Made by a program: the position numbers and the translations under genes. This document shows positions 12,160 through 28,429 of a DNA stretch of 64,000 nt, piece after piece. The stretch's first letter is position 1. Each line of letters opens with the position of its first letter. Source of the DNA: a virus; IMG/VR virus record IMGVR_UViG_3300025150_000006, positions 1 through 64,000 of that record; one strand, given 5' to 3'. The notes under the pieces were generated by a model, which did not search any database, had not been told where the DNA came from, and saw only the letters and a program-made list of their open reading frames with translations.

Positions 12160-13059
12160 TCAGATGACGTTGCCGAGGGCATCGTACACGGTGACAGCTC
12201 GGCCAGCGCCGCCTGCGAGGATGTTGCCCAACCCGATGGTCAAGGCCGTACCCGCTGCCCCATAGGTGAAAGCGGGGTTCTCAAACGCGAAGGTGGCCGC
12301 CTTGAGGTCAGCCAGGACACCATTCGTTGCCGACAGATGCAGGTCACCAGCATCGACGAGCTGCCGCACGTCGTTGAAGTTCGTGTCCTGGAGCCCAGTC
12401 TGCACGGGAGCCACCAGCGGGTCACCAGGGCGGAGGTAGGCCGGGGGAGCGTTGAATTTGCGCCCCCGCACTGCACCGTAGACACCCTCGACGCTCTGTG
12501 GCAGCTCCACGTTCGCACGGGCCACGAACGCCCCACGACGAGCACCGATGAAGTTCGGGACACCGTCCTCCAGAACTGCCGCCGCAGGCACACGGTAGCG
12601 CTCACCCGCCAGGATGCGGAGGATCTCCTCCACGGTGCCCGTCGAGTTGCCGGCCGTCAGGGACGAACCTGCACCGATACGAGCGGCGAGGATGGCGTTG
12701 ATCTCCACCGAGGTCAACGCCGTACCCGCTGCAACCGCAGCCTCGATGTCACCGGAAGCCAGGATCGCGTTGGCAGCCGTAGCTGCACGAGCGCCCACCT
12801 GGTTCTCGATGGTGTCGATGAGGTACGCCGACAGACCATAGGCATCCGCCGCCACCCCCGTGGTGATCGGGGGGCCTGCTGCCGTCGTGATGGGAAGGTT
12901 GACCCCATCGATCAGGTAGAAGGTCTGGTATCCCGTCTGACCCGAGTTCTGCCCGCTGAGGATAGGGTTGAGTTGGGACGTGTTTGGTTGCAGGTCCAGC
13001 ACCTGGAGCAGGCTGTCGTCCAGGTCATTCCGGGCGAGTACAATGTAAGCGCGGGCCAT
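12160..13059 (-). CDS. Virion structural protein, paralog family A (2 of 3)
   Basis: LQVLDLQPNTSQLN...GTVEEILRILAGERY...AVTVYDALG. Confidence 0.75.
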   Translation of the reverse strand: MARAYIVLARNDLDDSLLQVLDLQPNTSQLNPILSGQNSGQTGYQTFYLIDGVNLPITTAAGPPITTGVAADAYGLSAYLIDTIENQVGARAATAANAILASGDIEAAVAAGTALTSVEINAILAARIGAGSSLTAGNSTGTVEEILRILAGERYRVPAAAVLEDGVPNFIGARRGAFVARANVELPQSVEGVYGAVRGRKFNAPPAYLRPGDPLVAPVQTGLQDTNFNDVRQLVDAGDLHLSATNGVLADLKAATFAFENPAFTYGAAGTALTIGLGNILAGGAGRAVTVYDALGNVI

Positions 13060-20783: not shown

Positions 20784-21050
20784 TCAGGCCGCAGGTAGAT
20801 CTGTACCCGCCCCAAGTGCTAAACCATCCAGGCAGGCATCAAGACTGTCTCGAATCACAGGCAGAAACGAGTTGCGAACAGAGACCTTCAACGCCACCTG
20901 AGCCCGATTCTCATTCTCTGAGTATACCAGGAACTCCAACAGGCACCGCCCAGGGCCACCCTCGCACAGCCGAAAGGCGTTGCTGTAGACTCCCAGTGCT
21001 TTCCGTGGGTCCACATGGACCTCACACTCCACCCGGGCTTGTCTCGGCAT
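20784..21050 (-). CDS. DUF3467-like protein
   Basis: GVYSNAFRL...LLEFLVYS; paralog of the 10138 ORF. Confidence 0.6.
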   Translation of the reverse strand: MPRQARVECEVHVDPRKALGVYSNAFRLCEGGPGRCLLEFLVYSENENRAQVALKVSVRNSFLPVIRDSLDACLDGLALGAGTDLPAA

Positions 21051-21161: not shown

Positions 21162-21587
21162 ATGAAACCACTCTACGTCGTTGGCTTCCTGTTCACCCAA
21201 GACGGCTCCCAGGTCGTCCTCATCCAGAAGAACCGTCCCGTGTGGCAAGCAGGGAAATTCAATGGCCTCGGGGGCAAGCTCGCTCCCTCCGAGAGCTGGG
21301 AGGACGCCATGAGCCGGGAGTTCAAGGAAGAGGCCGGGGTGCTGATCCCACCCGGGGACTGGCAACACATGGCCACGCTGTTCAACGATCACTTCGAGTG
21401 CAGGTTCTTCCGGGCCTTCTCGGATCTCGCGCTGAACGCCCAGACGATGGAGACCGAGAACGTGTCCATCGTCCCTGTGAAGAACGTCATCAACCTGCCG
21501 ATCGTCACCAACCTGCACTGGCTGATCCCGATGGCCCTGGATGAAGGACTACACTTCCCCGTCGCGCCCATCAAGGATGGCCCCTGA
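21162..21587 (+). CDS. NUDIX hydrolase (MutT-like)
   Basis: Nudix box GGKLAPSESWEDAMSREFKEEAG. Confidence 0.9.
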   Translation: MKPLYVVGFLFTQDGSQVVLIQKNRPVWQAGKFNGLGGKLAPSESWEDAMSREFKEEAGVLIPPGDWQHMATLFNDHFECRFFRAFSDLALNAQTMETENVSIVPVKNVINLPIVTNLHWLIPMALDEGLHFPVAPIKDGP

Positions 21588-21591
21588 ACGC

Positions 21592-21625
21592 AAAAAGGGC
21601 CGGTTCCCCGTGAGGAACCGGCCCT
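21592..21625 (-). terminator. Rho-independent terminator
   Basis: AGGGCCGGTTCC/GGAACCGGCCCT stem plus TTTTT on -. Confidence 0.8.
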
Positions 21626-22143
21626 GAGTGTTGACGGCCAGTGGGGGCGGGCCAACACCCTGAAACGACGAAACCCACCGTTTTCCGAGGAAAAGACGGT
21701 GGGTTCGTGTTCTGGCTTGGGCGACTTTGGTGTTTGAAGACCACTCTCGCCGGTTGCCCCCATCCTCCCGAAGGAGGTCACCGTTGCCGTGTAGCTCTCG
21801 CTAGGTTGGCTTTGGTGAGATGGGTCGTGATGAAGGTGATGGACCCTTCGTCCCCATCGCGGGTTTGGGCAGTATATTTCAACTGTCCTGGGATTGGGTA
21901 GTAGGCCCCTCTCCCATGACGCTTACCGCTAAGCGTCCCATCGTTGAGGCTGATTGCGAGTCAACCCCTACTGCCGTTTCCCAGTGACCAAGAGCTACTT
22001 GATATGGTTGAAACGGAGGCTCCGCCAGGTTTCCCCTTTGGAACGAGTTCAGGTGGCTGCCTGAACCTTCCGAGCGAGACAGTGTATAGGGGCCTCCCCT
22101 GTACCTGGTTCCCTTCGGGCCGAAGGCGTCTCCGCCAGCGACG
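21592..22143 (-). ncRNA. Putative large structured ncRNA (~550 nt)
   Basis: Bounded by a sigma70-like promoter and a terminator; GNRA/UUCG-capped hairpins and a T-loop-like UGAAA hairpin on -. Confidence 0.7.
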
Positions 22144-22149
22144 AAAAGG

Positions 22150-22178
22150 GTTCTAACCGAGGTGCCCCCGAGCGTCAA
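22150..22178 (-). promoter_or_regulatory. Sigma70-like promoter TTGACG-N17-TAGAAC
   Basis: Near-consensus -35, 17-nt spacer, A-rich upstream tract. Confidence 0.6.
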
Positions 22179-22206
22179 CACCTTTTTTCGTGAGGTGCGA
22201 TCTTTT

Positions 22207-23319
22207 CTAAGGAGCCTGCACGGGGACGGTGTAACTCGGTGTAATCAAGGTCCTACCGTCGTCACCGACGATTGGAACAACAAACTGTTCCAGTAGGTCC
22301 GGGTCCCAGGGGGACGGGATGTCCCACGCAGTGGACACGGTAGCCACGTACACCATGTCCCCGGGCGAGAACACGTCATAGTCGGCAGCAGTTAACCCAT
22401 CAGGGAGTCCAACAGTTGTATCGACGATGACCGACGGGGAGTAGAAAAACGTCTTCATCCATGCTCCAATCGACGGTGCGCTGTCATGGGGCGCATAGTA
22501 GAAAGCGATCATGTATCCCACCGGAGAGACGGCATCGCAGTTCGACTCATACCAGGAACCCGTGCATGGCGAGTATTTCTTCGGATCCTTATAGTAGTAG
22601 GGGGCTCCTCCGACCTCAAGATGGCCAAAGCTCCCGGTGCACCCAGCAGAAGGTTTCATCTCCCCAGGGAATTCCTCAAGATAGCAGTCCGCATCGGTGA
22701 ACAGCCAATCCTTTGGATCCTCACCATCGGGGACCAGACCAAGGTCCACTACGTGCATCTTGATCGCCCGCTTGGTCTCGGTGGTCACGGTCACGCCGGG
22801 AGCCACAAGGTGAATCTCAACGGAGAAGCCGTGAAGGGGGAGCGGGGTGGCCGTGTCCTCGGGCTCGGTGTCGGCAACCACTGTATCCGTCACCGTGTCC
22901 GCGACCACTGTATCCGTCACCGTGTCCGCGACCACTGTATCGCTACTGGTGTCGGTCAGCCCTGCCGTGTCGGTATCCGCAGTGTCCTCAGCAGTGTCGG
23001 CAGCGACCTGGGTGTCGGTATCCTCCGTGTCCTCGGCAATGATGTCGTTTCCGGCGTCATCCGTGTCCTCGGCAACCAGGGTGTCCGAATCGACCGTGTC
23101 ATCACCGGCCAGGGTGTCATCAGTGAGGAGGGTGTCATCAGTGAGGAAGGTGTCATCAGCGAGGAAGGTGTCCGTCTCCGTGTCCCCACCGTAGGCATCA
23201 CCACCGAGCACGTCAGGCTGATCGGTGTTAGTATCGTAGGGGCTCCACGCGCGATCCGCCTGGATGCACCCCATCATCAGGGGGGCCATCAACAGAGCTG
23301 TTAGGGTCGAGCGGAACAT
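22207..23319 (-). CDS. Lipoprotein with a D/T-rich repetitive linker
   Basis: Signal peptide with LMMG-C lipobox; (A/T)DDT(F/L)L and ADTVTDTVV repeats. Confidence 0.75.
   Translation of the reverse strand: MFRSTLTALLMAPLMMGCIQADRAWSPYDTNTDQPDVLGGDAYGGDTETDTFLADDTFLTDDTLLTDDTLAGDDTVDSDTLVAEDTDDAGNDIIAEDTEDTDTQVAADTAEDTADTDTAGLTDTSSDTVVADTVTDTVVADTVTDTVVADTEPEDTATPLPLHGFSVEIHLVAPGVTVTTETKRAIKMHVVDLGLVPDGEDPKDWLFTDADCYLEEFPGEMKPSAGCTGSFGHLEVGGAPYYYKDPKKYSPCTGSWYESNCDAVSPVGYMIAFYYAPHDSAPSIGAWMKTFFYSPSVIVDTTVGLPDGLTAADYDVFSPGDMVYVATVSTAWDIPSPWDPDLLEQFVVPIVGDDGRTLITPSYTVPVQAP
22850..23190. repeat. Intragenic tandem repeats (27-nt and 18-nt units)
   Basis: accactgtatccgtcaccgtgtccgcg about 2.5 copies; ggtgtcatcagtgagga(g/a) 3-4 copies. 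Confidence 0.8.
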
Positions 23320-23340
23320 GGGGTCCTCCTAGTTACAACC

Positions 23341-23372
23341 CTACTACGGACCACGTCCGCATCTTGAGCCCC
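23341..23372 (-). promoter_or_regulatory. Class I promoter-like motif upstream of the lipoprotein gene
   Basis: Reverse complement reads GGGGCTCAA-N14-CCGTAGTAG. Confidence 0.8.
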
Positions 23373-23391
23373 AAAAATGAAAGATCTTTTT

Positions 23392-23423
23392 GGGGCTCAA
23401 GTCAAACCACAGGTCCGTAGTAG
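23392..23423 (+). promoter_or_regulatory. Class I promoter-like motif, divergent partner
   Basis: Exact motif. Confidence 0.8.
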
Positions 23424-23500
23424 GGGTGTCGATGGAAACACCCCCACACAGGAGACCCTATGATGCGCTAACCCAATCCCCCATTATGAAACTTGTAGAG

Positions 23501-23531
23501 AAAGCCGTCGGGTTGCGCCCCGGCGGCTTTT
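23501..23531 (+). terminator. Rho-independent terminator
   Basis: AAAGCCGTCGGG/CCCGGCGGCTTT stem then a short T run. Confidence 0.7.
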
Positions 23532-23540
23532 CCCGTTTCG

Positions 23541-23572
23541 GGGGCTCAACTCTTTCCCCCCTCCCGTAGTAG
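23541..23572 (+). promoter_or_regulatory. Class I promoter-like motif
   Basis: Exact motif upstream of the 23612 ORF. Confidence 0.8.
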
Positions 23573-23611
23573 TCGCAGTCGCGCACAACCCGACAGGAGA
23601 ACACTGATCCC

Positions 23612-24100
23612 ATGAACGTTTCCGCACTTCTCAACGCCATCATCGCCCGTGCCAATGCCCTGGAGCATCTGGCCACGGAACAGCGCAACGAAGCCGAACA
23701 GCTCCGCAACCTCATCTTCGGTGCCCCCGAAGTCGAGGCGGAGCCCGACGCCGAACCGGAGCCCGCACCGGTTCCTGCCGAGGCCCCGAAGCCGAGGCCC
23801 CAGCCGGCCGCCGTCCTCCCGAAGGCCCCGTTCATCCCCAAGCAGCCCCCGCTCCAGGAGATCAAGGACCTGGCCGCTGAGGTCGGCGTGGACGTGAGTG
23901 ACCTGTTCCCGGCCGGCGGAACGAAGCCCACCAAGGCGACCAAGTCGGCCGCCATGGCCCGCATCTTCAAGGCGAAGAAGGACGCGGCCGAGATGGCGAG
24001 GCTGGTCGAGCAGGATGAGGCGGACAAGGCTGCCCTCCTCAACTCGGACATCGGCACGGACGAGGAAGAGGACATCGACCTGGGCGACCTGGGCGACTGA
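23612..24100 (+). CDS. Hypothetical protein (Pro/Ala-rich, acidic tail)
   Basis: AGGAG SD and very strong GC3 bias. Confidence 0.75.
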   Translation: MNVSALLNAIIARANALEHLATEQRNEAEQLRNLIFGAPEVEAEPDAEPEPAPVPAEAPKPRPQPAAVLPKAPFIPKQPPLQEIKDLAAEVGVDVSDLFPAGGTKPTKATKSAAMARIFKAKKDAAEMARLVEQDEADKAALLNSDIGTDEEEDIDLGDLGD

Positions 24101-24149
24101 CCCAAGCACGGGTCACCAGGGCTCAAAGCTCCTGGTGACCCGTAGGGCT

Positions 24150-24521: not shown

Positions 24522-26660
24522 CTACCGCCGTTGCCACACCAAGATCGGTTCACCCCCTGACCTCCGGTTCAGGTTCGACAGAGGCATCATCAATGTCTCA
24601 ACCTCGACCAACCCAGCCAACCGAAACTCCTCGCGTGCCGTCTCCACCAGAGGATGAACAACATCCTTGTCCTTCACATCTGCGATGTTCATCACCCAGT
24701 GGCCACCCGACACCAAGGCTTCTGCCCCACGATGAATCATCGGCTTCAAGAATCCATCCCGCCAACTCTCAAACGTCCCGTACTCCGACCATGACTGGTC
24801 ACCACCCACGTATTGCTCTTGCTGGAAGTACGGCGGTGACGTGAACACCATCTGCACAGGTGGGGGGCTGAACTCCTCCGCAGGACACAGATGGATCTCT
24901 GTCTCATCAGAGGCCCCTAACCATTCTGCAAGCCTCAGGTTGCCATCTACTGTGGCCTCCGCCACGTCCGTCGCGACGTAACGGACACCTGCGGCTACCG
25001 CACCAACCAGTCGGCCACCGAAGCCTGCACAGGGGTCCCAGACGCTATCTCCCGGCTTGCAGTAGCGCTTGTACAAGGCAGCGGCCACCGCGGGACGGAA
25101 GATGGTAGGGGTGCGGGCGTTAGCGCACACAGCCTTGAGAACCCGTGGCGGGGTCACCGGGTCACCAACCTTGAACTGCCACTTGATGGCACGCTTCATA
25201 GCCTTGGGGTCGTGCCACGCCTGTAACGCCGATGCATTCCCCTTATACTTGGCCTGGTAACGATTCGGGAAGAACGAGTAGCACAGGGACAGTCCCAAGG
25301 GGCTGTGATCCAGGACCGCCTCTTTCGCTCGAAGGCTCCGCATCTTCTTGTCACGGACAAGACTGGACACCTGCTCAGGGTAGGGGAATTTCACCTTCCC
25401 CAGGATGGCCTGAACATCCAGAATCCATGCTTCCTGTGTGGGGGAGTCTTGGGCCCTCCACAAGGAAGTGTCCGGGTATTTCACTTCCAACTGCACACCA
25501 CCATCCGGGAGGAAATCCTTCGACTTGGGACCCGTCTTGAGGGGTGGGTGACCCGCTTCTCGGATTCTTCGGTAAATGGTTGCCTTGTGCACCCCGTAGA
25601 CCTCTGCAACCTCTTGACCAGTGAGGCCACTCTTGATCAGAGTGTGCATCTTGTCCCCCTCATGCCCAAGCAACAAAGGGCGTGCTGTCACCAAGGGCTG
25701 GGGGCCCGTCAACCAAGGGGCAGATGTCTGGGGCCTACCTTTGGGGGGGTTGTAAGCAATCCCCATCTTTTGAAGTTTGCGACGCAGCGTGGAGCTACCT
25801 ACGCCTAACTCACGAGCCATCCGGTCTATCGGGACACCCTTGGCAACACCATCCAGAAGGTCTACCTCTGTCAGCCTCTTCCGAACCTGATAGTGGGGCC
25901 CCTGGAAACCAAACGTGAGTTTGTAAGCCATGCAGGCAGGGATATGGGGGGTGACAATCTCCAAGAACCGTTCTGCGGTGTCCTCTCGTTCCATGTGGAA
26001 CGTCCCCGTCTTCCCCTGCCGTGTCTGCCAACGCGGCTTCAGCCCAAACTTCTCGAAGATGGCCTGAGCCACCTGATGGCTGGCCTTGTCCGCCCCAAAA
26101 ATGATTCCAGGCCACCAACCAGCGGTCCCGTCATCCAGATACCAGATGGCCAGAGCAAAATCATCCACGAGGTCCACAACCTCAGGTAACAGTCGTTTCC
26201 ATCCCTTGTGGTGATCCGCGTAGAACAACTCCTGCCAAGAGTTCAAAGAACCATGGGCACAAGTGCGCATACAGAACTGAGGATAGCCCTCCTTACTGGG
26301 GACTGCATACACCGGGGGGTCAAACTTGACCCAGTCACCCCACTGCTCAGTCTTCCACTGTAGGTAAGGCACCTGCTCCTCACAATGCCCCTCAGTGTAG
26401 TAGGTGGCATTGACCTGACGAACAAGGCGACCGTCACCCAGCATAGAGCCCACCAACAGAGATTGGAGCCTCCCCTCAATGGGGAGGACCTGATTCCGCT
26501 CCCATTTCGGGATGGCTGTGATCTCGAAACGGTTCCTCCAGTTCTGCACACGTTTCTTGGTAGTGCCCAGATGCTCTGCGATCTGGAGGTCCGTGAGTTG
26601 TTCATCCTCGACCATGGCTCGAAGGGCTTCGGGAGACACGGGGCATGGGATTGCTTTCAT
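24522..26660 (-). CDS. HTH-LAGLIDADG endonuclease-HTH-DNA amino-methyltransferase fusion
   Basis: LVGSMLGDG and LAIWYLDDG; DPCAGFGG (motif I) and FTSPPYF (motif IV); TATAAT 7 nt before ATG 26660. Confidence 0.8.
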   Translation of the reverse strand: MKAIPCPVSPEALRAMVEDEQLTDLQIAEHLGTTKKRVQNWRNRFEITAIPKWERNQVLPIEGRLQSLLVGSMLGDGRLVRQVNATYYTEGHCEEQVPYLQWKTEQWGDWVKFDPPVYAVPSKEGYPQFCMRTCAHGSLNSWQELFYADHHKGWKRLLPEVVDLVDDFALAIWYLDDGTAGWWPGIIFGADKASHQVAQAIFEKFGLKPRWQTRQGKTGTFHMEREDTAERFLEIVTPHIPACMAYKLTFGFQGPHYQVRKRLTEVDLLDGVAKGVPIDRMARELGVGSSTLRRKLQKMGIAYNPPKGRPQTSAPWLTGPQPLVTARPLLLGHEGDKMHTLIKSGLTGQEVAEVYGVHKATIYRRIREAGHPPLKTGPKSKDFLPDGGVQLEVKYPDTSLWRAQDSPTQEAWILDVQAILGKVKFPYPEQVSSLVRDKKMRSLRAKEAVLDHSPLGLSLCYSFFPNRYQAKYKGNASALQAWHDPKAMKRAIKWQFKVGDPVTPPRVLKAVCANARTPTIFRPAVAAALYKRYCKPGDSVWDPCAGFGGRLVGAVAAGVRYVATDVAEATVDGNLRLAEWLGASDETEIHLCPAEEFSPPPVQMVFTSPPYFQQEQYVGGDQSWSEYGTFESWRDGFLKPMIHRGAEALVSGGHWVMNIADVKDKDVVHPLVETAREEFRLAGLVEVETLMMPLSNLNRRSGGEPILVWQRR

Positions 26661-26823
26661 GCAAAGGATTATACACAGGTAATCCTCCAAGGTGCAGCTG
26701 AAATGAGGATGAGAAGTTCGGAAGAATGCGTCCATTCTTAGTGTGTCGGTCAACCAATGCACGCAACATAACCTACAGCCCAAGCCCTGTTTGAATGGGT
26801 GTGGTGCTTTTAACTCCAAAAGC

Positions 26824-26859
26824 AAAACGCCCCCTCAACCGGAGTTGAGGGGGCGTTTT
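26824..26859. terminator. Bidirectional Rho-independent terminator after the capsid gene
   Basis: AAAACGCCCCCTCAAC-CGGA-GTTGAGGGGGCGTTTT perfect inverted repeat. Confidence 0.9.
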
Positions 26860-26904: not shown

Positions 26905-27777
26905 TCAGCGGGTGACCGTCAGACGAGCCAACCCACGGGGGTTGTAGGCTCCGAGGCCCAAATTTTCAAAAATCGAGAAACCAATCATCCGGCGCTTCGG
27001 GTCGTCGGCCGAGAGGACGGTCAGCTCGGTACGGACGGGGATCCGACCGAACATCTCGGGCTCACAGCAGAGGTAGACCGTACCGTTGGGGACGAGACGG
27101 CTGGTGACGACGTTGGCACCGTAGATCACACCCTGGAGACCGGTCTTGAGCAGGGTTGCCTGGGACTCGATGTCGAGGATGTCGCGGCCGAACTTGCGGA
27201 TGTCCGCGTAGTCCCTGGCGTTCATGTAGATGCGGGCGACCCGGAGGTCATGCCGCTCGATGAGCGCGAAGGCATCCGCGAGGACCGCACCCGAGATGGG
27301 GGCGATGACCGGGATGTCGGCGTTGAGCTGACCGGGGAGGCTGTCGAAACCGGCAGTGGCCACGGAGTCGAGAACGGCGAACACTCGCTCGTCCTCAGCG
27401 GCCTGGATCTGCGCACGCCCGAGGTCCTGGGACCGCTCGATGAGATCGAAACGGCGCTCCTTGATCTGGGTGAGCGGGATCTCCGGGTTCGAGGCGATCT
27501 CGAACAGCGGGAAGATGACACGACGGGGCTTCGTGACGGCGAGGATATTCTGACCCTCTTCGCCGACCACGTATGCCGTGACGTCGGGGTCCTTGTCGTA
27601 GATCGGCAGCGCGCCGTCGGGGAGCTGCTCGACCAGGAAGGTCTTGCGGCCCACGGCGGCGTAGTCGCGACGAGTACGCAGGGGCTGTGTCATCGAGGCA
27701 GCGAGCTTCGCACGACCCTGGGGGGTCTTGATGTACTCGCCGATGATCTTCTGCTTGACAGCGTTGGTGACACTCAT
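26905..27777 (-). CDS. Major capsid protein (HK97-like fold)
   Basis: 290 aa, GAGGAGG SD, extreme codon bias, strong terminator; spine helix (DLIERSQ...IQAAEDERVF) and YGANVVTSRLVP. Confidence 0.85.
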   Translation of the reverse strand: MSVTNAVKQKIIGEYIKTPQGRAKLAASMTQPLRTRRDYAAVGRKTFLVEQLPDGALPIYDKDPDVTAYVVGEEGQNILAVTKPRRVIFPLFEIASNPEIPLTQIKERRFDLIERSQDLGRAQIQAAEDERVFAVLDSVATAGFDSLPGQLNADIPVIAPISGAVLADAFALIERHDLRVARIYMNARDYADIRKFGRDILDIESQATLLKTGLQGVIYGANVVTSRLVPNGTVYLCCEPEMFGRIPVRTELTVLSADDPKRRMIGFSIFENLGLGAYNPRGLARLTVTR

Positions 27778-27790
27778 GACGGTGACCTCC

Positions 27791-28429
27791 TCAGATCCGC
27801 TGGTCGTAGACCAGGTCGCCTTGGGTTGCATCGGGGGCCATCTTCACGATGCCGATGACAGTGGGCTGGAGGTTCTGCACCGTGGCAGCGTGGATGTCCC
27901 CCTGCTCCCAGAGCTGAGCATTGGAGTTGGCATCGTCGGCCGCGAGGGCGTTGGTGAGGTAGCCGTTCTTCGAGGCGAAGAGCTTCTGGCCGACGTTGTA
28001 CGCCGTCAGAGCCACACCGTCGGCGAGCGACTTGTCCTCAAACAGCGTGTTGCCGAACGTACCCTGACCCGAGACGTATGGGTTCTTGCCCGAGGCCGTA
28101 CCCGGCGTGTTCTCGAACGCATTGCCGTTCGCGCTGTTGATGAAGACACCGAGGATGCCGACGTTGCCTGTGCCAACGGCCGGAGGTCCACCGATGAAGT
28201 TGCTGCCGCCGCCTGCATCGCCGCGAGCAAAACAGACCGAGCCGCTCAGAACGCCCGAAAGCGTCTGATCGACCTGAGCCGTGATTGCCGTGGCCACCTG
28301 GGGTGGGTTCGTCTGAGTGAAGGCATCATCGGTCAGCACGCCTACTGAGTTCGCAATCCCGAGGTTCAGGATCCGCAGCGCGCTGCTCGACTCCGTCCAT
28401 CCACCGCTTGCCTGTCCGAGCAAAGGCAT
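27791..28429 (-). CDS. Putative capsid decoration/cement protein
   Basis: Between scaffold and MCP; G/T/N-rich beta protein. Confidence 0.6.
   Translation of the reverse strand: MPLLGQASGGWTESSSALRILNLGIANSVGVLTDDAFTQTNPPQVATAITAQVDQTLSGVLSGSVCFARGDAGGGSNFIGGPPAVGTGNVGILGVFINSANGNAFENTPGTASGKNPYVSGQGTFGNTLFEDKSLADGVALTAYNVGQKLFASKNGYLTNALAADDANSNAQLWEQGDIHAATVQNLQPTVIGIVKMAPDATQGDLVYDQRI

Follow-up and report, generated by a model that had tools for sequence, protein, structure and literature searches.

The window examined here (the whole 64,000-nucleotide stretch of DNA, which makes up the first 64 kb of a viral contig of 105 kb in IMG/VR) very probably contains, on its minus strand, a real and new gene for a large structured non-coding RNA. 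Comparison of six loci shows, at the level of sequence, a conserved, covarying, non-coding element that has a defined strand and promoter-like and terminator elements and is mobile within a hypervariable slot. The features that mark a structured non-coding RNA, compensated base pairs and the absence of a conserved ORF, are both found. Large, intricately folded RNAs of bacteria and phages are rare, and past examples have been ribozymes, ribonucleoprotein cores and, recently, self-assembling RNA cages. The present RNA would be a further large and ornate one, unrelated by sequence and model to the catalogued families, that comes from giant uncultured phages and is encoded in the capsid module rather than beside tRNAs. 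It would widen the set of candidates for new RNA biochemistry, and it is a defined target: at ~480 nt, and with six natural variants and a covariance model available, it lends itself to structure determination and to experiments on the uses that giant phages make of abundant non-coding RNA.

Architecture of the predicted RNA

The features of the RNA gene in the window, in the order of the predicted transcript, are as follows:

22183..22188, minus strand, A-tract, UP-element-like, just 5′ of the −35 box
22150..22178, minus strand, promoter-like element TTGACG/17 nt/TAGAAC, kept across six loci
22045..22142, minus strand, predicted 5′ domain (RNAalifold, 5 sequences)
22142-22119, minus strand, GAGA-capped hairpin of the 5′ domain
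22118-22070, minus strand, composite hairpin of the 5′ domain
22066-22047, minus strand, 7-bp hairpin GTTCAGG/CCTGAAC of the 5′ domain, compensatory changes in homologues
21831..22044, minus strand, conserved core (model R1/R2, 212 positions, 11 helices)
within 22044-21831, minus strand, GAAA-capped core hairpin
22018-21972, minus strand, long irregular core helix
21968-21946, minus strand, core hairpin GGGGTTGAC/ATCAGCCTC, compensatory changes in homologues
21943-21937 with 21863-21858, minus strand, helix CGATGGG/CCCGCG that closes the four-way junction
21936-21919, minus strand, junction hairpin ACGCTTA/TAAGCGT, compensatory changes in homologues
21916-21889, minus strand, hairpin within the four-way junction
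21888-21868, minus strand, junction hairpin CAGT...ACTG, compensatory changes in homologues
21849-21832, minus strand, last core hairpin, GAAGG/CCTTC
21709..21830, minus strand, predicted multibranch 3′ domain with GNRA- (GAGA, GCAA) and UUCG-capped hairpins
within the 3′ domain, minus strand, hairpins TAGC-GAGA-GCTA and CCTCC-TTCG-GGAGG, both recovered in homologues with compensatory changes
21750-21721, minus strand, hairpin of the 3′ domain
21662..21708, minus strand, family terminator, stem ACGAACCCACCG.../...CGGTGGGTTCGT then TTTCGTCGTTT
21708-21668, minus strand, terminator stem AACCCACCG/CGGTGGGTT, compensatory changes in all full-length members
21660-21627, minus strand, extra hairpin specific to the window copy
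21625-21596, minus strand, second terminator and T-run, strong and called by the terminator scan

Nearly all of the minus-strand elements that the original prediction listed for 21592-22178 are present, among them a TTGACG hexamer (22178-22173) that is followed by 17 nt and TAGAAC (22155-22150). Its size estimate of ~550 nt was somewhat too large, since the homologues (below) end at the first terminator and the conserved RNA is thus nearer to 480 nt (about 22142 to 21665). The comparative model divides this RNA into a 5′ domain of hairpins that varies among members, a conserved core arranged about the four-way junction, and a 3′ domain with many GNRA-capped hairpins, which is also the most weakly aligned part. 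The stem of the GAGA hairpin there covaries among members (UAGC/GCUA, CCGC/GCGG and CCCCGU/GCGGGG), and the G-U pair pointed out earlier in the core hairpin GGGGTTGAC/ATCAGCCTC is retained in five of the six members and is G-C in L027, the most distant one. Not every proposed element survived the comparison: the CCTTCGG/CCGAAGG palindrome shows no conservation in the homologues, and the hairpin CAGT...ACTG, which had been called T-loop-like, has no conserved T-loop and carries a plain GAAA tetraloop in L007. A tRNA-like (T-loop) reading of the four-way junction is not supported, given that GAAA loop and a negative ARAGORN result.

The sequence blocks that are invariant in the five closer members sit in loops and junctions, and they include the loop G(A/U)CCAUCA of the last core hairpin (hairpin 11). 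L027 has a 5′ domain reduced to 44 nt and is without helix 2 and without the conserved hairpin-11 loop; the four-way junction region is its best-retained part, and for this reason the junction is likely to be the functional heart of the RNA. An idea that the loop CCAUCACCU(U/C)C mimics an anti-Shine-Dalgarno sequence was dropped because L027 is without that loop.

We also observed that the invariant GAUGG in the junction-closing helix (21937-21941, minus strand) is complementary to CCAUC in the hairpin-11 loop (21838-21842, minus strand). This CCAUC is invariant in the five closer members, and the matching segments in L027 are GGCGC and GCGCC. The two segments may form an alternative pairing, a pseudoknot or a conformational switch, or their complementarity may be coincidence (~3% by chance for L027 alone, by our own rough estimate).

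At the 3′ end, the T-rich tail that follows the covarying terminator stem is TTTCGTCGTTT in four of the full-length members and TTCTTGTTTT in L027. The hairpins found at 21592-21660 in the window are absent from L004, L007, L107 and L027. The second terminator (21625-21596) abuts the stop codon of a convergent NUDIX hydrolase gene and is possibly bidirectional, and the hairpins of 21592-21660 probably also terminate transcription of that gene.

Conservation, covariation and non-coding character

Five further distinct homologues were found, one of which (L105) is cut by the end of its locus; their sources are uncultured relatives of Bacillus phage G that were recognised by their major capsid protein. 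Loci anchored on the capsid gene gave two pairs of identical copies (L005/L007 and L003/L004), in which the RNA starts 0.55-0.85 kb after the capsid gene. A scan of metagenome contigs with a three-block pattern added L105 and L107 (nhmmer E = 2e-81 and 6e-27), and the R1 covariance model of the 212-position core then found the distant L027 with 17 bits (E = 0.0016 in a 1-Mb search). L027 is counted as a member on the grounds that its promoter (A-tract/TTGACG/17 nt/TACAAC) is of the same kind, that it ends in a terminator and that the same small conserved gene lies directly downstream; its score of 104 bits against model R2 is circular, as R2 includes L027. Five members have covariance model scores of 148-213 bits, and there is a single copy of the RNA per genome.

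Searches beyond these loci were negative. The RNA was not found in ~100 other loci of capsid relatives (~1.4 Mb in total), in the complete 485-kb relative LR745208, in phage G or in Tunturi_5, and INPHARED phages gave no match by blastn of the region or megablast of 15 kb. Pattern scans of IMG/VR returned only four contigs already known, and the 8 matches to the pattern in GTDB genomes were chance ones that yielded 0 model hits. No new RNA-bearing loci came from IMG/VR and GTDB with the small downstream gene and a 459-aa neighbour as probes, and a second capsid-based harvest, centred on L027, yielded no new members. One candidate, L041 19521-19686 (15 bits), was rejected as a false positive that lies inside the coding sequence of a zinc-ribbon protein. 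About 50 further relatives are visible at the protein level (Logan, ENA, NCBI). In the collections searched, the RNA is rare and confined to one subclade of uncultured phage-G-like huge phages.

The predicted minimum free energy of the window RNA (559 nt) is −257 kcal/mol, compared with −205 ± 7.7 in dinucleotide shuffles (z = −6.8). The opposite strand folds nearly equally well (z = −5.9), so folding energy alone does not settle the strand; the minus strand is fixed by the excess of G-U over A-C cells (42 versus 11) and by the orientation of the promoter and terminator. Single-sequence folds of L027 and L107 are likewise more stable than their shuffles (z = −8.7 and −5.8, respectively), and several core helices recur in them, in the L107 fold most plainly.

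The check for covariation that the original prediction called for gave compensatory changes in half of the core pairs. In the core alignment (six sequences, 212 positions), which was fitted by the covariance model and so favours the model structure, 87.6% of cells have standard pairing compared with 75.2 ± 1.3% after shuffling (0 of 500 shuffles reach the observed value), and 32 of 64 pairs are changed on both sides with pairing kept compared with 12.4 in shuffles. When the 3′ partners are slid by 1–3 columns, pairing is 35–52%. Pairing reaches 79% of cells or more in ten of the 11 core helices, and compensated pairs occur in eight; the helix that closes the junction (CGAUGGG/CCCACG) varies on one side only. 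Unfitted MAFFT/RNAalifold alignments give the same helices, with 44 of 142 pairs compensated for three sequences and 47 of 118 for five, and compensatory pairs number 16 of 27 in the 5′ domain and 17 of 36 in the 3′ domain. The covariation is descriptively strong rather than strong in the formal R-scape sense, the set of six distinct sequences (one of them cut, and two pairs closely related) giving statistics of the R-scape type low power.

These changes bear directly on the possibility that the region has no function, as spacer or as what is left of a decayed gene, and that its hairpins (stacked terminators, for example) are there by accident. Such an origin would fit the patchy distribution, the insertion hot spot and the stacked terminators at the 3′ end of the window copy. 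It is already disfavoured, and we consider it extremely unlikely, in view of the double-sided compensatory changes at half of the core pairs, the conserved promoter geometry, and the loop and junction blocks that are invariant in the five closer members though the neighbouring coding DNA is only ~68–71% identical.

The region also lacks the marks of a protein-coding gene. There is no third-position GC periodicity across 21580-22180, although it is present in both flanks, and the earlier statement that there is no credible ORF agrees with the comparison, in which no ORF is conserved among the members and no codon periodicity is seen. The stop-free frames of ≥25 aa in one member agree neither in frame nor in length with those in the others, and their cross-matches are short, scattered and in all frames. 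The invariant AUG in AACGAUGGG lacks an upstream Shine-Dalgarno sequence, and the frames that start from it in three members have 19, 10 and 103 codons. The RNA region has no tandem repeats.

The suggested search of Rfam was carried out with Rfam 15 (4227 families). It gave no match at the gathering score for the whole window and no credible match at E ≤ 10 for four members (the window copy, L107, L007 and L027); at that threshold only chance-level matches to terminator-like hairpins appear, which differ by member and include no recurring family. The sole RNase P match is to the L107 terminator hairpin (12.6 bits versus a gathering score of 60, E 2.6). ARAGORN finds no tmRNA, and it finds 0 tRNA genes in the 64-kb window. 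There are no flanking exons of the kind an intron reading calls for, since the RNA unit has its own promoter and terminator; the flanking genes also differ among loci. The lack of tmRNA, RNase P and group I/II intron signatures noted in the original prediction is thus borne out, and its proposal of a new class is upheld by the missing Rfam match in four members, the strong covariation and the lack of a conserved ORF. An alternative is a highly diverged ROOL, GOLLD, group I/II intron, RNase P, tmRNA or phi29-type pRNA that the Rfam models miss: in its size, its origin in a phage and its many GNRA loops the RNA is like ROOL and GOLLD (PMC12286853, PMC5737381), and the position in the head-assembly module loosely recalls packaging RNA. 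That 4227 families give no credible match to any of four divergent members at E ≤ 10, together with the ARAGORN result and the absence of flanking exons and of a tRNA island, makes such an identity very unlikely.

Predicted transcription signals and the variable slot

CheckV rates the 105-kb contig as 24% complete, from which a genome of several hundred kb is expected. In IMG/VR there are 579 relatives of the capsid protein, and the contigs that carry them reach 618 kb; the nearest relative of the protein in the phage collection is that of the uncultured 485-kb phage LR745208 (84% identity), and it is 47% identical to that of Tunturiibacter phage Tunturi_5 and 40% to that of Bacillus phage G. 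By these relatives the virus is a huge, uncultured phage of the phage-G-like kind, and the RNA gene lies in its head-morphogenesis module. With Tunturi_5 as a relative, Acidobacteria are one guess for the host. The genes and motif around it in the window are as follows:

20787-21050, minus strand, small conserved gene, the other border of the slot that starts at the capsid gene
21162-21587, plus strand, NUDIX hydrolase gene (Pfam E = 6e-10), convergent and downstream of the RNA
22207-23319, minus strand, 370-aa ORF upstream of the RNA and on the same strand, no Pfam/PHROG match
23340-23420, minus strand, recurring pre-gene motif, hairpin TT(C/G)(T)GAGCCC...GGGGCTCA(G/A), then (A)GTAGTAG(G)
23458-24126, minus strand, 222-aa ORF between the homing-endonuclease gene and the RNA, no Pfam/PHROG match
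24522-26825, minus strand, 767-aa LAGLIDADG-methylase ORF with HTH domains and a LAGLIDADG_2 endonuclease (E = 4e-15)
26905-27831, minus strand, major capsid protein gene (PHROG major head protein, E = 2e-48)

The promoter-like element is kept in all six loci, with an invariant −35 box TTGAC[GC], a spacer of 17 nt and a −10 box that is TA[GC]AAC, TACATT or TACTTT; the spacer sequence diverges although its size is constant. All six also have GAAAAAAG or AGAAAAG 3–15 nt upstream of TTGAC, and this A-tract may serve as an UP element. A scan for consensus sigma-70 promoters in the window did not call the RNA promoter because its −10 hexamer ends in C, as it does in four of the loci; support for the promoter comes from its conservation in five further loci. 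The neighbouring genes are preceded by a hairpin + GTAGTAGG motif that is clearly unlike the TTGAC/TAnAAC element of the RNA and recurs at L004:11290-11350, L007:11180-11250, L105 and L107:930-960. This motif probably marks a promoter that belongs to the phage itself, perhaps a late one, or else a processing signal.

The slot that contains the RNA, bounded by the capsid gene and the small conserved gene, is variable, and in the window the LAGLIDADG-methylase gene and two genome-unique ORFs precede the RNA. The methylase part of the 767-aa ORF is a weak N6/N4 DNA methylase match (24.8 bits, just under the Pfam cut-off of 26.7) that is backed by PHROG methyltransferase matches. In L010 and on the contig of L027 a homologue of this ORF comes directly after the capsid gene, and LR745208 has a more distant one. 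Neither the 370-aa nor the 222-aa ORF has a counterpart in LR745208 or in the three related contigs G001-G003, and the 370-aa protein, used as a synteny probe, has no relatives in IMG/VR; both ORFs seem to be cargo that was acquired recently at the hot spot in which the RNA also lies. At L010:10560-12830 the LAGLIDADG-methylase gene fills the slot, and of the RNA only the family terminator (about 12765-12805) remains before the small conserved gene, so that the RNA body appears to have been lost or never to have been there, and the RNA appears to be dispensable in close relatives.

At the equivalent position L013:15640-15860 (= L132:15574-15758) has a different arrangement, a ~190-nt unit that has its own promoter (TTGACT/17 nt/TAGATT) and a strong terminator and contains a GGAAGG...CCUUC hairpin. 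It matches model R2 weakly (13 bits, E = 0.03) and could be either a reduced relative or some other small RNA. The convergent gene at the same position in L013 is NUDIX-like by eye.

No two members share the gene upstream of the RNA. Downstream, a convergent NUDIX gene comes next in the window and in L004 (12342-12785, minus strand), and a convergent 232-aa ORF in L007; in L107 and L027 the small conserved gene follows on the same strand within about 70–90 nt of the terminator. L007, L107 and L027 have no NUDIX gene there, and a functional link between the NUDIX hydrolase and the RNA, such as processing of the RNA 5′ end, is pure speculation. A search for a partner protein (G000 versus G001-G003 and LR745208) found none that travels with the RNA; only genes of unknown function track its distribution, and these contigs are too fragmentary for that to carry weight. 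The neighbours are proteins without a family match, the NUDIX hydrolase and the LAGLIDADG-methylase, and features of retrons, DGRs, CRISPR or type III toxin-antitoxin systems (an adjacent reverse transcriptase, Cas gene or toxin) are absent.

In L107 and L027 a promoter, a structured region, a terminator and a gene follow one another as in a classic attenuator, which raises the question of whether the RNA is a cis-acting leader (riboswitch, attenuator or antitermination RNA) by which read-through into the small conserved gene and the structural genes beyond it is controlled. A convergent gene intervenes in the window, L004 and L007, L010 retains the terminator and downstream gene without the RNA, no conserved alternative anti-terminator pairing is present, and 480 nt is far beyond the length of known leaders; we therefore regard a leader as unlikely. 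An independent transcription unit is favoured instead by the promoter geometry and terminator kept in six loci, by the differing upstream genes and by the convergent downstream genes in three.

Proposed role and comparison with known systems

We propose that the RNA is made from a stand-alone gene as a ~480-nt non-coding transcript, or, with read-through of the first terminator, as one of ~550 nt. The minus strand would probably be transcribed by host RNA polymerase with its primary sigma factor from the A-tract/−35/−10 element, and transcription would stop at the intrinsic terminator. We infer both the use of this promoter and the transcript ends from the sequence, and the assignment to the host polymerase from the fact that the neighbouring genes bear the different, phage-specific hairpin + GTAGTAGG motif. 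The gene would be accessory, moron-like cargo in an insertion-prone slot beside the capsid gene.

The product may be a stable RNA whose fold does its work in trans, whether by forming an RNA-only assembly, by serving as a scaffold that binds proteins or by acting as a decoy. The RNA probably acts neither by antisense pairing nor as a cis-regulator; GNRA tetraloops, multi-way junctions, invariant blocks and the lack of a linked protein favour a scaffold, decoy, assembly or catalyst over an antisense RNA or a simple leader. We put forward the trans-acting scaffold or decoy mechanism tentatively, as a possibility that falls short of an even chance. Less probable still, and better seen as a speculative proposal, is a new class of ornate phage RNA whose fold is itself the effector, whether as an RNA-only assembly, a ribozyme or a structural or packaged part of the capsid, with the invariant GAUGG, whose pairings with CCCAC of helix 7 and with the CCAUC loop of hairpin 11 exclude each other, possibly acting as a conformational switch. 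The idea of a capsid component comes from the position of the RNA gene in the head module.

The nearest analogues of the RNA are ROOL and GOLLD, large phage and prophage RNAs of unknown function that form RNA-only cages (PMC12286853). The original assignment to their size class is apt as an analogy of size, complexity and phage origin and does not extend to membership, since both models are unmatched and the tRNA neighbourhood is missing. ROOL, which averages 581 nt (Weinberg et al. 2017, PMC5737381; cryo-EM in PMC12286853) and is encoded by phages and prophages, resembles the present phage RNA in being large, ornate and multi-junction and in having no adjacent partner protein. ROOL usually lies near tRNA islands and spans several phyla, whereas the present 64-kb window has no tRNA and the RNA is seen only in one subclade of huge phages; the ROOL model is unmatched by the window copy, L107, L007 and L027. 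GOLLD likewise has conserved and variable parts, as does the present RNA with its conserved core and varying 5′ and 3′ domains, but GOLLD is often >800 nt and lies beside or around tRNAs, whereas here there is neither a model match nor a tRNA context. On every feature of membership examined (model match and tRNA location), the present RNA thus differs from these analogues.

Phi29-type pRNA is also a phage-encoded structured RNA with a host-type promoter, and the present gene lies in a head-morphogenesis module; pRNA is ~170 nt long, its model does not match the present RNA, and the latter shows no link to the portal or to packaging and appears to be dispensable in close relatives (L010). As a genetic unit the gene is most readily compared with phage morons, which also have their own promoter and terminator, lie between conserved structural genes and are patchily distributed, with the difference that the cargo here would be a large structured RNA in place of a protein gene.
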